A stretch of 64,000 nt of DNA from Actinomycetota bacterium (GTDB lineage Bacteria; Actinomycetota; UBA4738; HRBIN12): contig JAJPHY010000054.1 in the NCBI GenBank assembly GCA_021325015.1, forward strand, positions 8,523 to 72,522. Direction: 5' to 3'. The translations under genes and the position numbers were made by a program. The notes below the pieces were generated by a model. The model had not been told where the DNA came from. It did not search any database and saw only the letters and a program-made list of their open reading frames with translations. This document shows, piece by piece, positions 6,600 through 39,590 of this stretch. The number at the start of each line of letters is the position of its first letter. The stretch's first letter is position 1.

Positions 6600-7295
6600 A
6601 TGCGCGTGGTGATCTCCGGAGCCGGGGCCGTCGGACGCCACCTGGCGTCCGACCTTCGTCTGCGCGGTCACGATGTGCTGCTGATCGAGCAGGACCCGGC
6701 CACGCTCAAGGAGGCCAAGGAGTGGGCGCCCGACGTCGAGTACGTGCTCGGCGACGCGTGCGAGCTCTGGGTGCTCGAGAAGGCGAACCTGAAAACCGCG
6801 GACGTCGTCGTGGCCTCGACCGGGGACGACGAGGACAACCTGGTGACCTCGCTCCTCGCCAAGCAGGAGTACGCGGTCCCCCGCGTGCTCGCCCGGGTGA
6901 ACCACCCGCGCAACGAGTGGATGTTCACCGAGCAGTGGGGGGTGGACGTCGCCGTCTCGGTCCCCCACCTGCTCACGGCGCTCGTGGAGGAGGCGGTGAC
7001 CGTCGGCGACCTCGTCCGCCTGCTGCGTCTGGAGGGCGGCCGGGTGGCGCTGGTCGAGCTCACGATGCCCGACACGTCGCCCAACGCCGGCCGCCCGATC
7101 TACGAGCTCCGTCTGCCCGCCGACTCGGCGATCGTGGCCGTGCTCCGCGAGGGCCACGTGGTCATCCCGCAGCCCGAGTCGGTGATCGCGGCGGGGGACG
7201 AGGTCCTCGCCCTGTCCTCGGCCGAGTCGGAGGCGGCGCTCAGGCTGGCGATCGTCGGCGAGGGCGTCCCCGGCGGCTCGCCGCTCGACGAGTAG
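6600..7295 (+). CDS. trkA: TrkA-N/TrkA-C K+ transport regulatory subunit (ceoC-like)
   Basis: Begins MRVVISGAGAVGRHLASDLRLRGHDVLLIEQD, with a C-terminal RCK_C domain. The ATG lies 1 nt after the upstream stop. Confidence 0.85.
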   Translation: MRVVISGAGAVGRHLASDLRLRGHDVLLIEQDPATLKEAKEWAPDVEYVLGDACELWVLEKANLKTADVVVASTGDDEDNLVTSLLAKQEYAVPRVLARVNHPRNEWMFTEQWGVDVAVSVPHLLTALVEEAVTVGDLVRLLRLEGGRVALVELTMPDTSPNAGRPIYELRLPADSAIVAVLREGHVVIPQPESVIAAGDEVLALSSAESEAALRLAIVGEGVPGGSPLDE

Positions 7296-7317
7296 GGGCG
7301 CGGGGCCTCGGACAGAC

Positions 7318-7343
7318 AGACCCTGCGGACTAGTCTGTTTCAG
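7318..7343. repeat. Palindromic element GACTAGTCTG-TTT-CAGACTAGTC (10-bp stem) downstream of trkA; member of an ACTAGTCTG repeat family
   Basis: Read directly from the sequence. Related copies occur at 23196..23216 and 37840..37858. All sit 0-25 nt after + strand stops, locally GC-poor within a 70 % GC context. Confidence 0.5.
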
Positions 7344-7383
7344 ACTAGTCTGAGGGCCGACTGCTCCGGTGCCGCGCCGAGCG

Positions 7384-7797
7384 TCAGGCCGCGAAGTCGA
7401 AGCTCGGGTTCACCATCCGGCGCCCCTGACGGAGCTCCCCGACCACGCCTTCCACGATCAGACGCGTGCCGAGGGTAAGCCCGGGGATCGTCCGGCGCCC
7501 CATCCAGATCACCGACATCTCGCCGGTCCCGTCCGAGATCAGCGCCTCGAGCGACTCGAACCCCTCGATCGGCCGCACGGTGATTCGCTTGACCACCCCG
7601 GCCACCCGAACCCGGTCCCGGGTCGGGACCTCCGCGATCCGCGTCGTCCCCGGAACCTGCGAGGCCCACCGTCGGATCTCCTCGGCCAGGCGCTGCTCGT
7701 CGCTCTCCGCCATGCGGGAGAGGAAGCGACGGAACGGGTCGAGGATGCCCACGCGCCTATCGAAGGTGGTCGAGGCTCCGGCCGCAACTGGAGGCAC
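7384..7797 (-). CDS. OB-fold (tRNA_anti-like) nucleic-acid-binding domain protein
   Basis: RVRVAGVVKRITVRPIEGFESLEALISDGTGEMSVIWMGRR...RLIVEGVVGE is a typical OB-fold barrel. An alternative start at MAESDEQ (7713) would give 109 aa. Confidence 0.6.
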   Translation of the reverse strand: MPPVAAGASTTFDRRVGILDPFRRFLSRMAESDEQRLAEEIRRWASQVPGTTRIAEVPTRDRVRVAGVVKRITVRPIEGFESLEALISDGTGEMSVIWMGRRTIPGLTLGTRLIVEGVVGELRQGRRMVNPSFDFAA

Positions 7798-7800
7798 GGC

Positions 7801-10065
7801 TCAGGAGACGGCCGCCTCCTCCTTGGTCGTCTCGCGCGGGATCAGCAGCTCGCTCTTGCGGGCCTTCGAGATCCAGATCGCGGCCGCGAGGAGCACGGCC
7901 GCCGCCGCCGCGAACAGGAACCGCAGCGACCCGTCCCGAAACTCGACGACGAGCGGTGCGATCAACAGGGCGACGAGGTTCATGACCTTGATCATCGGGT
8001 TGAGCGCCGGACCGGCCGTGTCCTTGAAGGGGTCACCGACCGTATCGCCGATGACGGCGGCCCTGTGCTGCTCGCTGTTCTTGCCGCCGTAGTGGCCGGC
8101 CTCGACGTACTTCTTGGCGTTGTCCCAGGCCCCGCCGGAGTTCGACAGCATGACCGCCAGAAGCTGGCCGGTCAGGATCGCTCCCGCGAGGAACGCCCCG
8201 AGCGCCTCGGCCTTGAGGAGGAACCCCACGATCACCGGCGCCAGCACTGCGAGCAGGCCGGGCGTCATCAGCTCGCGGAGCGAGGTCTTCGTGCAGATGT
8301 CGACCACGCGCGCGTACTCGGGCTTCTCGGTGTAGTCCATGATTCCCGGGTGCTCGCGGAACTGGTTCCGCACCTCCACGACCACCTGCGAGGCGGCTCG
8401 GCCGACCGCGCGGATCGCGAGCGAGGAGAACAGGAACCCCACCGCGCCGCCGACGAGCAGCCCGACCAGCACGTCCGGCCGATCGACGGGGATCGGGAAC
8501 TCCTGGAGGTTGCCCTTGCCGAGCGCCTTCAGCACGGCGTCGGCGAACGACCCGAACAGCGAGGTCGCGGCGATCACGGCGGTCGCGATCGCCATGCCTT
8601 TGGTGATGGCCTTGGTCGAGTTCCCGATGGCGTCGAGGCCCGTGAGGATCTCCGCCGGACGCCCCTCGAACTCGCCGGACATCTCGGCGATGCCCTGCGC
8701 GTTGTCGGAGACCGGTCCGTACGTGTCCATCGACACGATGACGCCCACGGTCGTGAGCATCCCCATCCCGGTGAGCGAGATGAAGTACAGGCGCTCGAAG
8801 TTGTTGTTGCCGAGCAGGTACGCTCCGGTCACGGCGGCCGCGATCACCAGGATCGCCCACACCGTCGACTCGAGCCCGACCGAGAAGCCCGACAGGATCG
8901 TCGTCGCCGGGCCCGTCTGGGTGGCCTCGGCGATCTCGCGCACCGGCTTGTACTTGGTGTCGGTGAAGTACTGCGTGAGGATCTGGATGACCGAGGCGAG
9001 GATCAGTCCGAACAGCACGGCGACCGCCGGCCGGTAGTCCTTCATGTACCAACCGGCGATCACGAAGACGGCCGCCGCCGAGAGACCGGCCGACACGAAG
9101 AACCCGCGGTTGATCGACTTCATCCCGTGCTCGTCCTCGCTCCGGGGCGAGACCGCAAGGATGCCGACGATCGACGTGATCACGCCGACGGCGCGGACGA
9201 ACAGCGGGAACATCACGCCGCCGATCGCGCCGACCTGCGAGCCGGCGAACGCGGACGCGCCGAGGATCAGCGAGGCGACGAGCGTGACCTCGTAGGACTC
9301 GAACAGGTCGGCCGCCATCCCGGCGCAGTCGCCGACGTTGTCGCCCACGTTGTCGGCGATCACGGCCGCGTTGCGCGGGTCGTCCTCGGGGATCCCCTTC
9401 TCCACCTTGCCGACGAGGTCGGCCCCGACGTCGGCCGCCTTGGTGAAGATCCCGCCGCCCACCCGCATGAACATCGCGAGGAGCGCCCCGCCGAACCCGA
9501 AGCCGACGAGCACGTCGGTCGCGTCGGTCTTGTACACGATCAGGATCACGGTGGCCCCGAGAAGCCCCAGCCCGACGGTGAACATCCCCGCCACCCCGCC
9601 GGCGCGGAAGGCCAGCCGCATCGCGCGCCGCAGGCCCGATTCCCGCGCCGCATCGGCCACCCGGACGTTCGCGCGCACGGCCAGCCACATGCCCGTGAAC
9701 CCGGTGATCCCGGAGAAGCCCGCGCCCAGGATGAAGGCGATCGAGCGCCCGAACCGGATGAACAGGTCGCCGTGCACGGCGCCCTCGGGCACCGGCAGCA
9801 GGAAGAAGATCGCCACCGTGAGGATGACCAGGAACACACCCACCGTGGTGAACTGCCGCCGCAGGTAGGCGCTCGCCCCCTCCTGGATCGCCCGCGCGAT
9901 CTCCTTCATCTTGTCCGTGCCCTGGGGCGCGGCGAGCACCTCGCGTACCAGGTAGTAGGCGAAGAGCAGCGCGATCAGCGAGATGCCCAGGATGATCCAG
10001 AGCGCCCTGTCTTCGAACGAGCCGAACACCGCCTTGATCGGCCCGCCCTCGGCGGCCAGGTACAT
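7801..10065 (-). CDS. hppA: Membrane-bound H+-translocating inorganic pyrophosphatase (V-PPase), probably the K+-independent type
   Basis: MYLAAEGGPIKAVFGS...ADNVGDNVGDCAGMAADLFESYEV...DAIGNSTKAITKG, where the Lys in the GNxxKA motif marks the K+-independent type. ATG 10065 is preceded by GAGGAGG. ORF 7801..10725 carries a spurious ~220 aa N-terminal extension. Confidence 0.9.
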   Translation of the reverse strand: MYLAAEGGPIKAVFGSFEDRALWIILGISLIALLFAYYLVREVLAAPQGTDKMKEIARAIQEGASAYLRRQFTTVGVFLVILTVAIFFLLPVPEGAVHGDLFIRFGRSIAFILGAGFSGITGFTGMWLAVRANVRVADAARESGLRRAMRLAFRAGGVAGMFTVGLGLLGATVILIVYKTDATDVLVGFGFGGALLAMFMRVGGGIFTKAADVGADLVGKVEKGIPEDDPRNAAVIADNVGDNVGDCAGMAADLFESYEVTLVASLILGASAFAGSQVGAIGGVMFPLFVRAVGVITSIVGILAVSPRSEDEHGMKSINRGFFVSAGLSAAAVFVIAGWYMKDYRPAVAVLFGLILASVIQILTQYFTDTKYKPVREIAEATQTGPATTILSGFSVGLESTVWAILVIAAAVTGAYLLGNNNFERLYFISLTGMGMLTTVGVIVSMDTYGPVSDNAQGIAEMSGEFEGRPAEILTGLDAIGNSTKAITKGMAIATAVIAATSLFGSFADAVLKALGKGNLQEFPIPVDRPDVLVGLLVGGAVGFLFSSLAIRAVGRAASQVVVEVRNQFREHPGIMDYTEKPEYARVVDICTKTSLRELMTPGLLAVLAPVIVGFLLKAEALGAFLAGAILTGQLLAVMLSNSGGAWDNAKKYVEAGHYGGKNSEQHRAAVIGDTVGDPFKDTAGPALNPMIKVMNLVALLIAPLVVEFRDGSLRFLFAAAAAVLLAAAIWISKARKSELLIPRETTKEEAAVS

Positions 10066-10268: not shown

Positions 10269-12026
10269 TCACGTGAGCGGCCCGACGACCGCGCCGAGCT
10301 CGCGGTCGAGGTCCTCCAGCCCGGCACGGAGGGCGTGCCCCGCGGCGGCGACCTCCTCCGCGTGCTCCGCGCTTCGCTCCCGCTCCTCCTGCGCGCGACG
10401 AACGCCCGCGCGGAGGCTCTCGACCGTGCTCGAAAGACGGTCCACGAGCTCGCGCTCGAGCGCGCGCACGCTCTGGTCCAAGCGCGTGACGAAGTCGTAG
10501 CGGAGCCGACCCATGTGCTTGTCGACCAGCCGTGGGATCGCCTCCATCACGTCCCGCTCCACGAGCTTGCGGGCCACCTTCCTCGGGAGGTACCGCCGCA
10601 GGTCGGGAAGGAGCGACTCCAGAATGGTCGGGACCTCGAAGAAGGAGTAGGAGAACTCGGTCCTCCGCGAGAGCTCGACGCGGGCCACCCCGGTCTCGAG
10701 GCGGATCCCGAGGATGTCGCCGCACACGCGGACGGTCTCCTCCGCGATCTGCTCGGCCTCCTGGACGAACCGGGCGGTCGCCTTCCGGAACGCCTCGGCC
10801 ACCCGCCGATCCTCGGCCCCTCGCCAGCGGTCGACGTCGGCGCGCAGCCGGGCCCGCACGAGCTCGTCCAGCTCGGAGCCCATCGTTCGGACCTCCTCCG
10901 CCCGGTCCAGGAACTCGCGGGCCACCCGACGGAGCTGATCCTCCTCGCGCCGTCGCAGCGCCTCGAGGTCGGCCTCGATCGTCGCGACCAGCCGGTCGCG
11001 CTCCTTCCGCACGAGCGCCCGTACGTCGTCCTGGCGCTCGGCCGCGCGGGCGAAGACCCGCTCCATCTCCTCGACGCGGCGGGCGAGGTCCTCCTGCGGC
11101 AAGGCCGCCGCCCGCTCCTCCACGTCGATCGAGTTCCGGAGGTCGGCGATCAGCCGCCGCGCGCGCTCGGCGACCGACTCCAGGATCGTGCCTCCCTTCT
11201 CGCGGAGCAGGAACGCCCGGAAGTCGCGCTCGAACGCTGGGAGCCCTGAGTCCTCCAGCGCCGTCGGGTCGGCTTCAAGCTTGGCGCGCAGCGCGTTCCG
11301 GGCGCTCACCGGGTACAGGCGAACCTCGTGGCCCACGGCATCGGCGATCACGCCTCGGGTGAACTCGATCGCCTCCTCGCGATCGGACTCGGACAGATAG
11401 TCGACCTTGTTCAGGACGAAGAACATCCGGGCCGCCTCCTCCCGCACCTCCCGGAGGAACGCCCGCTCGGCGTCGGAGATCGGCGGATCGGCCGTCGTGA
11501 GGAAGATCGCGGCGTCGGCCTCAGGCACGAACGCCCGGGCCGCCTCGGTGTTGTGGGCGTAGACGCTCCCCACGCCCGGCGTGTCGACCAGGAACACGCC
11601 GTCGCGGAGCTCCTCGGCCGGGTAGTGGAGGACGGCGCGCTCCACGCCCCGGCGGTTCTCGGGGTTCCCACGCTCCGTGACGAAGGCGGCGAGCTCGTCG
11701 ACACCGATCGGCTCGACCCGGCCGCCCGTACGCACCACCTCCGCGCGGACCTCATCGCCCCAGGTCACCGCCGTGACGACCGAGGTGAGCGGGACGACGG
11801 CGGAGGGCAGGACCTCCGCGCCGAGCAGCGCGTTGACGAACGTGGTCTTTCCCCGCTTGAACTCGCCGACCACCACCACGTTGAAGCGTTCCTCGGCGAG
11901 CTTGTTCGACAGCGCTCGGCAGGCCTCCGCCACTCCGTGCCCGTTGCGCCGCTCGGCGAGCTCGGCGAGTCGAGCGAGGAGCGCGGTGAGGCGGTCGCGG
12001 CCCTCCGCGTACGTCCGGTCCCCCAT
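10269..12026 (-). CDS. Bacterial dynamin-like GTPase (BDLP, IniA/IniC-like)
   Basis: P-loop VVGEFKRGKTTFVNALLG, switch motif DTPGVGS and NKVD, followed by a long coiled-coil stalk region. The SD AGGAG lies 5 nt before the ATG. Confidence 0.8.
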   Translation of the reverse strand: MGDRTYAEGRDRLTALLARLAELAERRNGHGVAEACRALSNKLAEERFNVVVVGEFKRGKTTFVNALLGAEVLPSAVVPLTSVVTAVTWGDEVRAEVVRTGGRVEPIGVDELAAFVTERGNPENRRGVERAVLHYPAEELRDGVFLVDTPGVGSVYAHNTEAARAFVPEADAAIFLTTADPPISDAERAFLREVREEAARMFFVLNKVDYLSESDREEAIEFTRGVIADAVGHEVRLYPVSARNALRAKLEADPTALEDSGLPAFERDFRAFLLREKGGTILESVAERARRLIADLRNSIDVEERAAALPQEDLARRVEEMERVFARAAERQDDVRALVRKERDRLVATIEADLEALRRREEDQLRRVAREFLDRAEEVRTMGSELDELVRARLRADVDRWRGAEDRRVAEAFRKATARFVQEAEQIAEETVRVCGDILGIRLETGVARVELSRRTEFSYSFFEVPTILESLLPDLRRYLPRKVARKLVERDVMEAIPRLVDKHMGRLRYDFVTRLDQSVRALERELVDRLSSTVESLRAGVRRAQEERERSAEHAEEVAAAGHALRAGLEDLDRELGAVVGPLT

Positions 12027-12031
12027 CGAGC

Positions 12032-12058
12032 GCTCCTACCCCCGCCATCGGTAGGAGC
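12032..12058. promoter_or_regulatory. Palindrome GCTCCTACC-N9-GGTAGGAGC, 5 nt upstream of the dynamin-like gene start and containing its SD
   Basis: Read directly from the sequence. A near-identical copy at 12195..12221 abuts the ATG of the divergent gene. Confidence 0.45.
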
Positions 12059-12104
12059 CATCAGCCCGGAGCGGGCGGTCGGCGGGCCCCATCGCCTGTT
12101 GTGG

Positions 12105-12132
12105 AGTATAGGCATCGGTCCCTCCTATACTG
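12105..12132. promoter_or_regulatory. Inverted repeat AGTATAGG-N12-CCTATACT in the centre of the divergent promoter
   Basis: Perfect 8-bp arms read from the sequence. The element is AT-rich and -10-like (TATAGG / TATACT). Confidence 0.35.
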
Positions 12133-12194
12133 CGTCGGGCGATTCGTTCGCCCGAGGCGATGGAGCTCGCCGAACCGCTCGACGTGAGCTGATA

Positions 12195-12221
12195 GCTCCT
12201 ACCCGTCGGGGAGGTAGGGGC
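12195..12221. promoter_or_regulatory. Palindrome GCTCCTACC-N9-GGTAGGGGC directly abutting ATG 12222 and containing the SD
   Basis: Read directly from the sequence. It is a twin of the element at 12032..12058. Confidence 0.45.
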
Positions 12222-21453: not shown

Positions 21454-21482
21454 GCTCGGGGCATCGTCCCGGATGCCGGGGC

Positions 21483-22232
21483 ATGACCCGGGTGGTTGTA
21501 GTTCGGGGCGGGCCCCGGTACCCTTCCCGCGGTTTGTCCGAAGGTCGCCATCGCCCGTCACCCCAGCGGCGGCTCCCCCCCGCGGTGCTGATCGTCCCAG
21601 CCGCGCTCGTCGCGCTGGGCCTGGTCCTGTTCCTCGTGCTTCGCGGCGGGAGCGGCGGCCGAGGCATCTTCGGCGGAGGCCCCGACGACACGATCCCCGC
21701 GTTCGACTTCCGGATCACAAAGACACAGCCGATCGTGGTCACCGACAAGGAGCCGTCGCAGTTCGACTCGTCCGCGGCGCAGGTGGCGGACGAGGTGACG
21801 AAGACGATGACGGCGCTCTACACGGAGGCCTTCCTCGACCCGTCGAACTGGCGCGACGGCACGTACGACAACGTGTGGCCCCTGTTCGACGAGGGCTCGC
21901 GCACGAGCGCTCAGCAGGACGGCACGACGCTCACGCTCGGCGCCTCCGCCGGCGACACGTACGACAAGGTCGGCCGCCCCAAGGGAAAGATCGCCGTCAA
22001 GGTGCTCCTGGACCGCGAGGAGAAGCCCTCGATGGCGGTCGCGATCGTGAAGTTCAGCGCCCTCGGGACCCGCAAGGACGGCACGTACACCGAGATCGTG
22101 AGCACCGGCCAGTTCTTCCTGAGGCCCGGGGGTTCCGGCTGGACCGTGTACGCGTGTCAGGTCCGGCGCTCGGACCACGAGACCACGCCGCCGCCGGGTC
22201 CCTCCGGCAGCCCCTCGGGAGCGTCCTCGTGA
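21483..22232 (+). CDS. Hypothetical membrane-anchored protein (Arg-rich N-terminus, one TM, extracytoplasmic domain)
   Basis: The C-terminal 200 aa of ORF 21309..22232 show coding composition (TKTQPIVVTDKEPSQFDSS...). The stop overlaps the LCP start (GTGA). The start is uncertain. Confidence 0.5.
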   Translation: MTRVVVVRGGPRYPSRGLSEGRHRPSPQRRLPPAVLIVPAALVALGLVLFLVLRGGSGGRGIFGGGPDDTIPAFDFRITKTQPIVVTDKEPSQFDSSAAQVADEVTKTMTALYTEAFLDPSNWRDGTYDNVWPLFDEGSRTSAQQDGTTLTLGASAGDTYDKVGRPKGKIAVKVLLDREEKPSMAVAIVKFSALGTRKDGTYTEIVSTGQFFLRPGGSGWTVYACQVRRSDHETTPPPGPSGSPSGASS

Positions 22233-23185
22233 GGCGGCGGACCGTCCTCGCGGCCGTCGCGCTTGCGGCGTGGATCGCGGGATCGACGCTCGGGATCTCG
22301 GCGCCCGGAGGAACGCCGAGGGCCTCGGCGCAGCCGTTCCTCGAGATCGGCCAGGCGCACGCCGGGTTCGCGCCCACGCTCGACGGCTCTCGGCCGATCT
22401 TCATCCTGTTCATCGGGAGCGGCGCGCGTCCCGGTGAGGACGTCGAGCACTCGCTCGCCGACTCGATCCACATCGTCTCGATCAACCCGGCCAAGCACCG
22501 ATCGGCGATCCTCGGAATCCCGAGGGACTCGTGGGTGGACATCCCCGGCCACGGGTCGAGCAAGATCAACTCGTCGATGGTCTACGGGGGACCCCAGCTG
22601 CTCGTCCAGACCATCGAGAGCCTGACCGGCATCCACCTCGACTACTGGGTCCTCACCACGTTCTGGGGCTTCACGACGATGCTGAACAACATCGGCGGCC
22701 TCACCGTGGACGTGCCGTTCGCGATGCACGACTCCTACTCGGGGTCGGACTTCGAGCCCGGGGTGCAGGTCCTCAAGGGGCCCGACGCGTTGGCGTTCGC
22801 CCGCGACCGCCACAGCCTGCCCGAGGGCGATTTCGGGCGGTCGGAGGACGGAGGCCGGCTCATCGTGGCCGCGCTGCAACAGTTCCGGAAGGAGTACTCG
22901 AAGGATCCCAGCCGGCTGCTGACCTGGGTCGCGGCCGGCCTTCGAAACGTCCAGACCAACGTGCCCTTCGACCAGGTTCTCGAGCTTGCGTTCACCGCGC
23001 TCTCGGTGAACCCCAAGTACGTCGAGAACGTGGTGGCGCCGGGGACGACCGGCATGGTGGGCGGAAGCTCGGTCGTGAATCTGACCTCGCAGGCGCAGAC
23101 GATCTTCCACGACATGGCGGGCGACGGGCTGATCGCCAAGAAGAACCTGCCGCCGAGCCCGAACGCGAGCCTGCTGGGCGGCTGA
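22229..23185 (+). CDS. LytR-CpsA-Psr (LCP) family cell-envelope phosphotransferase
   Basis: FILFIGSGARPGEDVEHSLADSIHIVSINP...GIPRDSWVDIPGHGSSKINSS.. The N-terminal ~250 aa of ORF 21473..23185 are off-frame. The real start is GTG 22229. Confidence 0.8.
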   Translation: MRRRTVLAAVALAAWIAGSTLGISAPGGTPRASAQPFLEIGQAHAGFAPTLDGSRPIFILFIGSGARPGEDVEHSLADSIHIVSINPAKHRSAILGIPRDSWVDIPGHGSSKINSSMVYGGPQLLVQTIESLTGIHLDYWVLTTFWGFTTMLNNIGGLTVDVPFAMHDSYSGSDFEPGVQVLKGPDALAFARDRHSLPEGDFGRSEDGGRLIVAALQQFRKEYSKDPSRLLTWVAAGLRNVQTNVPFDQVLELAFTALSVNPKYVENVVAPGTTGMVGGSSVVNLTSQAQTIFHDMAGDGLIAKKNLPPSPNASLLGG

Positions 23186-23195
23186 TCACCCCCGA

Positions 23196-23216
23196 GCTAG
23201 TCTGTTACAGACTAGT
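23196..23216. repeat. Palindrome AGCTAGTCTGT-T-ACAGACTAGTT, 11 nt after the LCP stop; ACTAGTCTG family
   Basis: Read directly from the sequence. The arms are 9-10 bp. The flanking genes are convergent. Confidence 0.5.
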
Positions 23217-23263: not shown

Positions 23264-24310
23264 TCAACGCGTGAGCACGTACACGACGTACGCCGCGTAG
23301 AACGCGCCCTGCAGCAAGAGCCAGGGCGCCGTGAAGCGCTTCCGGAACCGGATCGTGCCGTACAGGACGAGTCCGGCCGCGAGCGCGATGCCGGCGGCCA
23401 CCAGCGCCTCGTGCGCGAGGTGCCAGGGGGTGAGCAAGAGCCCAACGGTCACGGGGAACGAGGACTGGAACACCATCGCCCCGGTCATGTTGCCCAGCGC
23501 GAGGGTGTCCTTGCGACGCCGGACCCAGATCACGCTGTTGAACTTCTCCGGCAGCTCGGTCGCGAACGGCGCGAGGAGCAGCGCGAACACGAGGTGCGAG
23601 AGGTGGAACCGCTCGCCGAGCAGGTTCACCGCGGAGACGAACAGGCGCGCGCCGCCGACGATCAGCAGGAGAGAGACGGCGACCTGGACGAAGCTCGGCC
23701 AGCTCGGCAGGCGCTTGGACCACGCCGGGAGCGAGGGTCGCAGGCGCCGGAACCAGGCCCACACGTACAGCGGTCGGATCTCGCTCTCGGCCTCCGCCTC
23801 GAGCTCGCGCTCGCCGGGCGCGGCGAAGTGCCGCCGCACGTAGAACACGTAGCCGACGACCAGGACGGCCGAGAGGGCCCAGTCGAGCGCCCGCACGTGG
23901 ACGAGCCCGGCGACCATCGCGAGCGCGTACATCGCGAGGAAGTAGCCGAGGTCCTGCCGAAGCACGCCCGGATCGCCCTCGAGCTCCAGGCTCCGCCCGT
24001 TCGTTCGGGAGGTGACGAAGACCGCCACCGCGATCACGAACATCGCGAGCGTGGTCAGCATGAACGGCGCCCCGAGGATCGCGCCGATCCCGATCTCCTC
24101 GCCGGAGGCATGACCGGACACGATCGCGATGATCGGCAGGATCGTCTCGGGGAGCGCGGTGCCGACGGCGGCGAGCACGCTCCCGACCGCGCCGTCGGAC
24201 AGGCCGAAGCCCTCGCCGATCCACTCCACACCGTTCGTGAACAGCTCGGCGCCGGCGAGGATCACCAGGAGCGACAGGGCGAGCTCGAGCCATTGCATGG
24301 GCCGGGGCAT
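23264..24310 (-). CDS. CaCA-family cation/Ca2+ antiporter (YrbG-like)
   Basis: Alpha-repeat motifs GTALPE and ATELPE/GNMTGA, with 10 predicted TM segments. Confidence 0.8.
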   Translation of the reverse strand: MPRPMQWLELALSLLVILAGAELFTNGVEWIGEGFGLSDGAVGSVLAAVGTALPETILPIIAIVSGHASGEEIGIGAILGAPFMLTTLAMFVIAVAVFVTSRTNGRSLELEGDPGVLRQDLGYFLAMYALAMVAGLVHVRALDWALSAVLVVGYVFYVRRHFAAPGERELEAEAESEIRPLYVWAWFRRLRPSLPAWSKRLPSWPSFVQVAVSLLLIVGGARLFVSAVNLLGERFHLSHLVFALLLAPFATELPEKFNSVIWVRRRKDTLALGNMTGAMVFQSSFPVTVGLLLTPWHLAHEALVAAGIALAAGLVLYGTIRFRKRFTAPWLLLQGAFYAAYVVYVLTR

Positions 24311-37436: not shown

Positions 37437-37844
37437 ATGGCGGACGACGATCGCTACGAACGCGGGCGCAGGCGCCTGGCCGAGATCCACGGCGAGCGCT
37501 CCCTGGCCACGATCGAGTCGCTCGGCGACCTCGGCCGCTACATCGTCGAGTTCGCGTACGGCGAGGTGTACTCGAGGCCGGGGCTCTCCCTCCGCGACCG
37601 GCAGATCGCGACGGTCGCCGTGCTGGTCGCGCTCGGTCGCTCGTCGCAGCTCCCGGTGCACCTGCGCTCCTCGCTCGCGGCCGGCCTCACGCCCGACGAG
37701 CTTCGCGAGATCATCCTGCAGACGGCGACCCTCGCCGGGTTCCCGCCGGCGATGAACGCGATGTCGACCCTGAAGACCATCCTCTCCGAACGCGAGGACC
37801 CGGCCGGTCGGCCCGAGGCCGGCCCGGCTACGAGCGGGAACTAG
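37437..37844 (+). CDS. Carboxymuconolactone decarboxylase (AhpD-like) family protein
   Basis: YIVEFAYGEVYSRPGLSLRDRQIATVAVLVALG is the CMD domain. Confidence 0.8.
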   Translation: MADDDRYERGRRRLAEIHGERSLATIESLGDLGRYIVEFAYGEVYSRPGLSLRDRQIATVAVLVALGRSSQLPVHLRSSLAAGLTPDELREIILQTATLAGFPPAMNAMSTLKTILSEREDPAGRPEAGPATSGN

Positions 37845-37858
37845 TCCGTGACAGACTA
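37840..37858. repeat. Palindrome CTAGTCCGT-G-ACAGACTAG overlapping the TAG stop of the CMD gene; ACTAGTCTG family
   Basis: Read directly from the sequence. Followed at 37862..37883 by the GC hairpin GGCGCGCC-CCGCGT-GGCGCGCC. Confidence 0.5.
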
Positions 37859-38057
37859 GATGGCGCGCCCCGCGTGGCGCGCCGGTAGGCCGGCATGCTG
37901 GCGCGGCTCCCGAACACCCCGTCGAGCCCGGAGCACGACCCGACGGCTCGTCGATGAACCGGTTCGTCGCGGGCCTCCTCGAGGCGATCGGGGTGCGGGC
38001 CCGACCCGGGGCCGAGGTGGTCGGGGTGCGCGACCGACCCGGTACGCTCGCGCCGCC

Positions 38058-39590
38058 ATGTTGTTCGAGGACGTCGCACGGACCTCGGCAGAGGTCGCCC
38101 GGACCAGCTCCCGATCGAGGAAGGTCGAGCTCCTGGGCGGGCTCCTCCGCTCGGCGGGTCCGGCCGAGGTCCCGGTGGTGGTCGCCTACCTGTCCGGAGC
38201 GCTCCCGCACGGGCCGGTCGGCGTGGGATGGGCCTCGCTCCGCGACCTTCCCCCTCCCGCGTCGCGCGCCACCCTCGGGGTTCGCGAGGTCGACGCCGCG
38301 CTCCGACGGATCGGCTCTCTGTCGGGAGCGGGGTCGCAGTCCGCGCGGCGGCGGGAGCTCGCCGACCTGTTCGGGCGGGTCACCGAGCTCGAGCGGCGGT
38401 TCCTGATCGGGTTGCTGACCGGCGAGGTCCGGCAGGGCGCGCTCGAGGGCGTGATGGTCGAGGCCGTGGCGCGGGCGGCGGAGGTTCCGCCGGGGGCGGT
38501 GCGGCGGGCGCTGATGCTCGGAGCCGACCTCGGAGCGGTGGCCGCGGCGGTCCTCGCCGAGAGCGAGCGCGGGCTCGCTCGGTTCCGCCTCCAGGTGCTC
38601 GAGCCGGTCCAGCCGATGCTCGCCCGGACGGCCTCGGATCTCGCCGGGGCGTTCGGGCGGATCGCGCCCGCGTCGATCGAGTGGAAGCTCGACGGCGCAC
38701 GCATCCAGGTGCACCGCCGTGGCGACCGGGTCCGCGTCTTCACCAGGAACCTGGCCGACGCCACCGAGCGCGTGCCCGAGATCGTCGAGCGGGTCCTCGC
38801 GCTCCCGGTGGAGGCGGTCGTGCTCGACGGCGAGGCGATCGCCCTCCGCGACGACGGACGCCCTCGCGCGTTCCAGGTGACGATGCGCCGGTTCGGAAGC
38901 CGGCGGGGAGTCGAGGAGCTCCGCGCGGAGATCCCCCTGTCCTGCTTCTTCTTCGACGCGCTCCACCTGGACGGGGAGGACCTGATCGACCGGCCGCAGG
39001 CGGCGCGGTTCGAGGCGCTTCGCGAGCGGGTGCCGCCCGATCTGGTCGTGCCCCGCACCGAGGCGGCGACGGATGCGGAGGCCCGGCCATTCCTGGAGGA
39101 GACGCTCGCGCGCGGGCACGAGGGCGTGATGGTCAAGGCGCTCGACGCGCCGTACGAGGCCGGCCGCCGCGGCGCGAGCTGGCTGAAGGTCAAGCGCGCG
39201 CACACGCTCGACCTGGTCGTGCTCGCCGCCGAGTGGGGGCACGGGCGTCGGCGGGGGTGGCTCAGCAACCTGCACCTCGGCGCGCGCGATCCGTCCTCCG
39301 GCGGGTTCGTGATGCTCGGCAAGACCTTCAAGGGGATGACCGACCAGATGCTGGCGTGGCAGACGGAACGCCTGCTCGAGCTCGAAGCGGCCCGGGACCG
39401 CTCCACCGTCTACGTGCGCCCGGAGCTGGTCGTCGAGGTCGCGTTCGACGGGCTGCAGGAGAGCCCGAGGTACCCGGGCGGGCTCGCGCTCCGGTTCGCC
39501 CGCGTGAAGGGCTACCGGCCCGACAAGCGGGCCGGCGAGGCGGACACGATCGAGACCGTGCGGGCGATCCACGCGGGCTCGAACTCCTGA
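38058..39590 (+). CDS. ligB: ATP-dependent DNA ligase (LigB-type)
   Basis: N-terminus MLFEDVARTSAEVARTSSRSRKVELLGGLL is mycobacterial LigB-like. Adenylation motif I EWKLDGARIQ, plus the OB domain. The ORF-track start at 37860 is likely too far upstream. Confidence 0.85.
   Translation: MLFEDVARTSAEVARTSSRSRKVELLGGLLRSAGPAEVPVVVAYLSGALPHGPVGVGWASLRDLPPPASRATLGVREVDAALRRIGSLSGAGSQSARRRELADLFGRVTELERRFLIGLLTGEVRQGALEGVMVEAVARAAEVPPGAVRRALMLGADLGAVAAAVLAESERGLARFRLQVLEPVQPMLARTASDLAGAFGRIAPASIEWKLDGARIQVHRRGDRVRVFTRNLADATERVPEIVERVLALPVEAVVLDGEAIALRDDGRPRAFQVTMRRFGSRRGVEELRAEIPLSCFFFDALHLDGEDLIDRPQAARFEALRERVPPDLVVPRTEAATDAEARPFLEETLARGHEGVMVKALDAPYEAGRRGASWLKVKRAHTLDLVVLAAEWGHGRRRGWLSNLHLGARDPSSGGFVMLGKTFKGMTDQMLAWQTERLLELEAARDRSTVYVRPELVVEVAFDGLQESPRYPGGLALRFARVKGYRPDKRAGEADTIETVRAIHAGSNS

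Follow-up and report, generated by a model that had tools for sequence, protein, structure and literature searches.

A 19-bp palindrome at the gene ends of uncultured Actinomycetota, predicted to bind a lineage-specific PadR-family protein

Introduction

In Bacillus subtilis the operator of PadR reads ATGT-N8-ACAT. PadR repressors, winged-helix homodimers (PF03551) that bind inverted repeats with half-site centres ~13 bp apart and overlapping the promoter of the regulator's own gene, typically serve one promoter or a few adjacent ones. Specific palindromes also make up the chromosome-positioning sets ParB-parS, Noc-NBS, SlmA-SBS, MatP-matS and RacA-ram, whose sites lie mostly inside genes. Extragenic palindromes of another kind, REP/BIME elements and inverted DUS/USS pairs, occur in hundreds to thousands of copies, with degenerate and clustered forms and single-orientation units. 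Finally, a repressor bound inside a gene can act as a roadblock to transcription, as is the case for Escherichia coli PurR on purB and for CodY and CcpA in Bacillus.

NapM (Rv0047c) is a mycobacterial protein of the PadR family, described as nucleoid-associated and as having a genome-wide and cell-cycle role rather than that of a local repressor. It is linked to the cell cycle and to envelope stress and is reported to be confined to Mycobacterium (bioRxiv 10.1101/2024.11.29.625984, a study that gives no specific palindromic site set for it).

The present study concerns a palindrome occurring three times in a 64-kb stretch of actinobacterial DNA, the whole of which is hereafter called the window. 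The system to which it appears to belong resembles PadR repressors in its predicted winged-helix homodimer, its inverted-repeat operator and its half-site spacing, and likewise overlaps the regulator's own promoter, which would imply autoregulation. It differs from B. subtilis PadR in its half-site, TAGTC, and from typical PadR systems in its distribution, with tens of near-consensus sites per genome, mostly at gene ends. With the chromosome-positioning sets it shares a highly specific palindrome of 12-16 bp, probably in tens of copies per genome on lower-bound counts, putatively dimer-bound, conserved between related species and tolerated in transcribed DNA, but those sets rely on other protein families, and the motif described here avoids coding sequence. 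Like REP/BIME and DUS/USS palindromes it is found in extragenic 3' regions, between converging genes, although without their high copy number, degenerate or clustered forms, or single-orientation units. As in the PurR, CodY and CcpA roadblocks, the putative operator lies outside a promoter, and one copy is conserved inside purB; those roadblocks, however, are single cases in ordinary regulons, whereas the entire site set considered here lies, as a rule, off promoters.

Literature searches retrieved no description of the motif or of its putative PadR regulator (a search with the sequence gave only primers) and nothing relevant on PadR in combination with a palindrome, convergent genes or ChIP-seq.

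Materials and methods

A total of 185,579 species genomes were scanned with CTAGTCNGTNNCAGACTAG, which returned at least 108 loci (these, and the loci retrieved by protein, carry L numbers below); this pattern fixes one half-site, so that copy numbers per genome and the gene-end logo are biased lower bounds. Gene contexts were assigned with a GC3-based gene caller, for which Pfam hits and public precomputed gene calls provided a partial check. The link between the motif and a PadR gene was posed as a prediction from one orthologous set of loci (G2) and then tested by protein-only retrieval, both from assemblies and from metagenomes. The metagenome search, conducted with the PadR alignment, gave 80 loci, 73 of which had at least 120 nt of upstream sequence. 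The 54 distinct PadR promoter sites served as an unbiased sample for position analysis.

Three copies of one palindrome in the window

The three near-identical palindromes described by an earlier note are real. The window holds three copies of a 19-bp palindrome with the consensus CTAGTCYG-N3-CAGACTAG, all in a single shared register and, as located by mismatch search, not assigned to a strand: site 1, with the core 19-mer CTAGTCTGTTTCAGACTAG, at 7330-7348; site 2, the perfect 19-mer CTAGTCTGTTACAGACTAG, at 23197-23215; and site 3, CTAGTCCGTGACAGACTAG, one half-site of which is the C variant, at 37841-37859. With up to three mismatches allowed, the 19-mer matched three times against 0.00 expected (100 shuffles), and CAGACTAG matched six times against 0.38 expected from shuffles. 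After the three sites, the next-best match to the 21-mer in the window had seven mismatches, and a search with a looser consensus again returned exactly three sites. Half-sites occurred in the window only within the full palindrome, none being solitary. A chance origin of the three copies is excluded.

The sites are indeed GC-poor, as had been noted, at 42% G+C compared with 72% for the window. CTAG was found 12 times in the 64 kb against ~161 expected from base composition, a ~13-fold under-representation, and six of these 12 copies belong to the three sites. Window-wide, TTAA and AATT were counted once each.

The coordinates previously given for sites 2 and 3 (23197 and 37840) hold, while those for site 1 (7318-7343) were ~10 nt too low; the form GACTAGTCTG-TTT-CAGACTAGTC exists, but spans 7328-7350 rather than starting at 7318. 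The statement that each copy lies 0-25 nt past a plus-strand stop codon proved to be only a rough one. Site 1 is found 34 nt past the stop of a TrkA-like gene (6600-7295, +) and 35 nt from that of the converging OB-fold gene (7384-7797, -). Site 2 lies 11 nt past the stop of a LytR-CpsA-Psr gene (21473-23185, +) and 48 nt from the stop of the Na/Ca-exchanger gene converging on it (23264-24310, -). At site 3 the stop is inside the motif, where, according to sequence and gene calls, the CTAG provides the TAG (37842-37844, +) of a CMD-family gene (37437-37844). Site 3 also lies 198 nt upstream of the true start, at 38058, of ligB, encoding an ATP-dependent DNA ligase. All three sites lie outside divergent promoter regions.

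Two alternative gene models around site 3 were discarded. GC3 and independent gene calls both spoke against a long form of ligB starting from the ATG at 37860, and the minus-strand ORF crossing the site (37828-38079) was not accepted as a gene, its translation being of low complexity and rich in R, P and S. The 198-nt non-coding stretch before ligB (37860-38057) has an odd codon-position G+C pattern, and yielded no Rfam match and no convincing ORF.

A motif family in uncultured Actinomycetota

At least 95 of the at least 108 loci are titled as MAGs of uncultured Actinomycetota or Actinomycetes. Among the matches listed, all carriers are uncultured, and their MAGs derive from soil and groundwater, have 65-74% G+C and hold several loci each; viral contigs gave no match. 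In the family as a whole, CTAGTCYG and CRGACTAG form invariant arms around three freely varying central bases. Across 0.86 Mb of locus DNA, CTAG-N11-CTAG was matched 112 times against 0-3 times for any other spacing, and degenerate copies were rare, with one bearing 2-3 mismatches and five bearing four. One related MAG contains at least ten pattern matches in ~4 Mb; such counts, which are lower bounds, point to tens of copies per genome, which would fit the order of magnitude of the chromosome-positioning site sets. As for local density, the window has three copies within 30 kb, compared with at least 3-4 per Mb in the related MAG.

Synteny with the window was found for loci L093 and L007 (65-76% identity), which places the source organism of the window within the motif-carrying group. 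The region of site 3 has copies 99.96-100% identical in three other assemblies.

Association with a PadR-family gene

Three of the four cases in which the motif lies at a divergent junction correspond to the promoter of a PadR-family gene. Together with three tandem cases they constitute a single orthologous set (G2), in which the motif lies 4-42 nt before a gene of ~182-183 aa, at 6/6 loci, with a HAD hydrolase gene coming after it. The product belongs to the PadR family (PF03551, E 2.7e-17), and the six proteins are 48-62% identical.

Orthologues fetched from assemblies by exact protein sequence had CTAG-N11-CTAG 42-75 nt upstream at 4/4 loci, in the form of CTAGTCCG-N3-TGGACTAG variants that the DNA scan pattern could not find, and no further copy occurred in the 4 x 20 kb retrieved. 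In the metagenomes, the motif (up to two mismatches) was located within 200 nt upstream of the PadR gene in 69 of the 73 loci, and no match occurred elsewhere in 254 kb. Among the fetched orthologues the motif lies 9-78 nt upstream of the start. No other regulator gene recurs beside the motif among the matches listed.

At L109 and L110 a -35-like element (TTGCCC/TTGTTC) and a TAGACT -10 are 17 nt apart, and the site occupies the whole of this spacer; at L018 and L038 the start of the site is 3 nt past a TACACT -10. Judged from the sequence, these would be classical positions for a repressor. The weaker C7/A8 variants are over-represented among the promoter sites. In many PadR promoters a second, weaker site, CTGGTCYG-N3-CAGACTAG, follows 24-25 bp after the first (L109 at 9965, L113 at 9935, L114, L115, L119, L123, L131, L173 and L183), which suggests cooperative binding of two dimers. 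In a few lineages (PadR promoter sites of L132, L146 and L190) both outer bases are changed together (GTAGTC...GACTAC), a symmetric substitution that may reflect an altered specificity of the protein.

The best solved-structure match to the PadR protein is NapM (PDB 8JXK; E 1.7e-11, 47.6 bits, residues 6-142 of 182), which has the same two-domain layout of 182 aa. Orthology with NapM is not supported, the match being distant and NapM being stated to occur in Mycobacterium only.

The 64-kb window itself holds no PadR homologue, and the presence of the gene in the same organism is predicted from relatives; the PadR gene of L109 lies on the same MAG contig as L093, which is syntenic with the window at 5.9-10 kb. 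A gene for a HAD-family hydrolase follows the PadR gene in L109-L111, L113 (~10630-11440) and L064, the L064 protein bearing a hydrophobic C-terminal tail, and the PadR neighbourhood includes many cell-envelope genes (lgt, M15 peptidase, sulfatase/LtaS-like).

Placement at gene ends

The earlier note had proposed mapping the motif relative to gene ends at genome scale, and in the loci retrieved the copies lie chiefly at gene ends. Among 102 copies in high-G+C DNA, 45 lie at convergent junctions, 32 at tandem and 4 at divergent ones, with 8 being intragenic and 13 at locus edges; the motif-free junctions of the same loci comprise 53 convergent, 407 tandem and 98 divergent. Converging pairs represent 45/81 motif junctions against a background of ~10%, an enrichment of ~5-fold even over a simple model in which any 3' end is acceptable, whereas divergent junctions are nearly avoided. 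The earlier description of a repeat family with a 3'-end bias is thus correct as a description; what does not hold is the idea of a dispersed repeat, given tens of copies per genome at orthologous positions.

In an independent frame test, an open GC3-supported frame ended exactly at the TAG of the motif on 66 of 200 motif sides, while the other two frames provided such a frame on only 19 of 200, though chance predicts twice as many. At least ten converging pairs have both stop codons inside one motif. The median converging gap is 31 nt with the motif and 20 nt without it, and the hairpin energy of the gaps is the same in either case, on which ground the motif was rejected as a stand-in for hairpin terminators. 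Since converging gaps are short even without the motif and their hairpin energy does not differ, the overlap with stop codons looks like the result of fitting an AT-rich 19-bp site into very tight junctions, not like a replacement of terminators. Being AT-rich and carrying TAG on both strands, the motif can scarcely be accommodated in coding sequence whose GC3 exceeds 0.9; with coding sequence and promoter regions avoided, it is gene ends, and above all converging gaps, that remain for it.

Conservation, intragenic copies and turnover

Comparison of flanks defined 17 orthologous groups, the largest with 12 species; within these groups changes affect the centre and the Y/R positions and spare the arms. 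Orthologous positions are kept across species with saturated synonymous divergence. The motif lies upstream of metG in 12 species, the upstream neighbour differing between sub-groups, and is found where ddl converges on parB in six species, where a histidine kinase gene converges on UspA/ABC1 kinase in five, and between der and a following CDP-alcohol phosphatidyltransferase gene in four. In this lineage metG is apparently leaderless, with a TAnnnT -10 located 6-9 nt before the ATG, and the motif lies a variable distance of 13-50 nt further upstream of this promoter (L006, L015, L022, L034, L042, L060, L078, L082, L091 and L106).

Intragenic copies, at loci ascertained through the motif itself, occur within purB in four species (L004 at 1579, L023 at 3627, L052 at 3410 and L053 at 3990), where the motif encodes LVCARL with the rare codons CTA and AGA; within an acetyl-CoA-synthetase-like (acs-like) gene in three species (L016 at 3926, L047 at 3105 and L068 at 7515), where it encodes LVWNRL; and within a DnaE2-like (dnaE2-like) gene (L096 at 4953). 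The third codon positions around these copies are largely diverged. One further copy (L036 at 7372) separates ilvN from ilvC, normally parts of one operon, lying 5 nt beyond the stop of the former and 36 nt ahead of the start of the latter.

The sites turn over between relatives; L093, for example, has no site 1. At the orthologous junction (2960-2975) only CTAGTC is found, at the stop codon of the TrkA gene, and it may be the remnant of a lost site.

Possible docking or roadblock function

The explanation that we consider probable as a whole is that the three elements are sites for the homodimer of a lineage-specific PadR-family protein, with the copies at gene ends acting as docking points at the level of DNA. 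The binder would be a winged-helix homodimer of the PadR family, ~182 aa long, encoded elsewhere in the genome by a gene followed by one for a HAD hydrolase, and its site would comprise two half-sites CTAGTCYR with 3 free bp between them. The protein would repress its own promoter from a weaker form of the site, a proposal founded on where that form lies, within the -35/-10 spacer or across +1. The other sites, tens per genome and with the three of the window among them, would be near-consensus copies at gene ends, chiefly tiny converging gaps, as the only non-coding places without a promoter, where the CTAG ends often become stop codons. The weaker autoregulatory sites would hold the free protein at a level that keeps the near-consensus sites at gene ends occupied. 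There, the bound dimer would give the chromosome a fixed point of docking or a boundary, of an architectural, positional or topological nature, and would let RNA polymerase through.

For the gene-end copies taken by themselves, this function as fixed docking or boundary sites is the one we favour as most likely, albeit tentatively. Polymerase must normally pass the sites, given the stops inside them (66/200 sides), the copies within purB, acs-like and dnaE2-like genes, and the one between ilvN and ilvC; the equal hairpin energy of gaps with and without the motif and the position of NapM as nearest solved relative were also counted in favour of docking. A purely architectural role, on the other hand, offers no obvious reason for conservation of 16 out of 16 bases at each site.

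A doubtful but serious alternative retains the same PadR protein and the same sites and regards the gene-end copies as protein roadblocks or insulators, at which the dimer stops or slows RNA polymerase arriving from either side. Such roadblocks would end transcription units, limit antisense read-through where genes converge and shield downstream promoters such as those of the leaderless metG and of ligB, and a ligand that releases PadR might relieve the block. The strong enrichment of convergent junctions (45/81 against ~10%), the symmetry of the site, and the tiny converging gaps lacking hairpin terminators in these genomes are all consistent with this role, as are the tendency of the sites to hug the upstream stop and precede promoters, e.g. 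that of metG in 12 species, and the copy conserved inside purB, the gene in which PurR forms a roadblock in E. coli. However, a polymerase stalled at the edge of the protein would leave the in-site stop untranscribed at one third of motif sides and generate non-stop mRNA; copies inside essential coding sequences and between ilvN and ilvC would be costly if the block were strong; and the site occurs at only tens of the several hundred converging junctions of a genome. A strong constitutive roadblock is consequently hard to reconcile with the stops within the site, the intragenic copies and the ilvN-ilvC copy. The probability left by docking and roadblock goes to some other local function of the gene-end copies, or to none.

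Duplex DNA site or RNA hairpin

Far less likely is a function in RNA, with the motif forming a hairpin that acts as a tract-less intrinsic terminator or 3'-end stabiliser and is kept for an RNA-binding factor or an RNase. The location at gene ends would suit a hairpin of this kind, and a palindrome forms an identical hairpin whichever strand is transcribed. The fold of site 1 is strong, reaching -32.6 kcal/mol over 7310-7370 (z -4.9), with an extended palindrome that folding delimits at 7321-7356 (12-bp stem plus 4 bp; no strand assigned). It is, however, the sole strong hairpin of the three: the fold of site 2 is marginal, and that of site 3 (z = 0.06) is no better than shuffles. The core RNA hairpin, with a stem of 8 bp including four G-C pairs, has an energy of only -7.4 kcal/mol, and no T run follows the stem in the sequence of sites 2 and 3. 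A scan for terminator and promoter consensus sequences around site 1 (7000-8000) found nothing terminator-like and nothing promoter-like, and Rfam, queried for the whole window at the gathering threshold and for the surroundings of each site at E <= 1, returned only two unrelated fluoride riboswitches. Neither a stable G+C-rich stem, nor a U tract, nor compensatory change, the marks of an intrinsic terminator, was seen.

The distribution of variants also speaks against pairing in RNA. In the 54 promoter sites, T2 A3 G4 T5 C6 and G14 A15 C16 T17 A18 are invariant or nearly so, without covariation, and the two half-sites vary independently where they do vary (Fisher p = 1.0 for positions 7/13 and p = 0.71 for 8/12). 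The pairs at 7/13 were C.A in 18 sites, C-G in 17, T-A in 9 and T.G in 10; non-pairable variants (18/54) are thus as common as paired ones. At gene ends, sites bearing a single C variant would put U.G into the sense transcript in seven cases and C.A in seven, with no strand bias. Flank complementarity is absent in 62% of copies, as in controls, though long extensions of the palindrome into the flanks show a small excess (6% vs 0.2% in the control). Moreover, the same sequence occupies the untranscribed -35/-10 spacer of PadR promoters.

Independent variation of the half-sites, non-pairable pairs and a weak core hairpin without a U tract together point to a double-stranded DNA site of a dimer rather than an RNA terminator. 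The selected feature appears to be the duplex sequence of the two half-sites, as expected for a winged-helix dimer, and not a hairpin. With regard to the two functions that the earlier note had put forward, the binding site of one dimeric factor is, on sequence evidence, strongly supported by the invariant arms, the free centre, the independent half-sites and the presence of the motif at 69/73 PadR promoters. The tract-less terminator is not supported, in view of the core energy, a site 3 fold no better than shuffles, the lack of a U tract, the equal numbers of U.G and C.A, and the stops and conserved coding sequence inside the motif. Given the strong extended hairpin of site 1 and the slight excess of long extensions, some copies may nonetheless double as hairpins.

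Least probable of all is the reading of the motif as a small palindromic repeat, mobile or copy-pasted (REP, MITE or transposon footprint), that inserts at or near stops and has no host function. This reading would fit the extragenic 3'-end location, the presence of site 1 in the window and its absence at the orthologous TrkA/OB-fold junction of L093, the local density of the window and the difficulty of evolving a 16-base site de novo repeatedly, but is opposed by the low copy number (on lower-bound counts), the length of only 19 bp with no conservation of flanks, the orthologous positions kept despite saturated synonymous divergence, the single copy with 2-3 mismatches in 0.86 Mb, the half-sites never found alone, the lack of viral matches and the tight link to the promoter of one regulator. 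DUS-like and IS630-footprint readings were dismissed because of copy number, because half-sites were not found alone and because copies are conserved at orthologous positions.

Implications

The predicted protein-site pair is of an ordinary kind, a PadR repressor with an autoregulatory palindromic operator. What is unusual is that tens of near-perfect sites are placed systematically at gene ends, are conserved across species and double as stop codons. It is possible, though we would not count on it, that a sequence-specific PadR-family protein marks gene ends genome-wide in this uncultured lineage, either as a system of unit boundaries and terminators or as a new chromosome-positioning system. 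In the former case it would be a bacterial counterpart of the roadblock terminators Reb1, TTF-I and mTERF; in the latter, it would have the role of Noc, SlmA or MatP, and we know of no system of that type in this phylum. In either form, it would be the clash of an AT-rich CTAG motif with coding sequence of 70% G+C that has forced the sites onto stop codons.

For soil actinobacteria of a large group known solely through metagenomes, these results provide a concrete candidate pair of protein and site. Its design would be uncommon, the best sites of the regulator lying off promoters, at gene ends, where they give stops to one or both converging genes. If the sites limit read-through, they bear on how actinobacterial transcription units end where intrinsic terminators are scarce; if they organise the chromosome, they bear on what replaces systems of the Noc, SlmA and MatP type in Actinobacteria. 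Should neither apply, the motif would offer a clean example of base composition and promoter avoidance shaping the location of binding sites.

Additional observations

TAGTCT was considered as the -10 of antisense promoters and set aside, 27-60% of half-sites being TAGTCC, without the final T. In the window, a tRNA scan found none and the GC-skew profile gave no signal of an origin or terminus. The two fluoride riboswitch aptamers (RF01734, 47-49 bits) are arranged back to back at 12045-12105 (-) and 12147-12208 (+), driving divergent genes.
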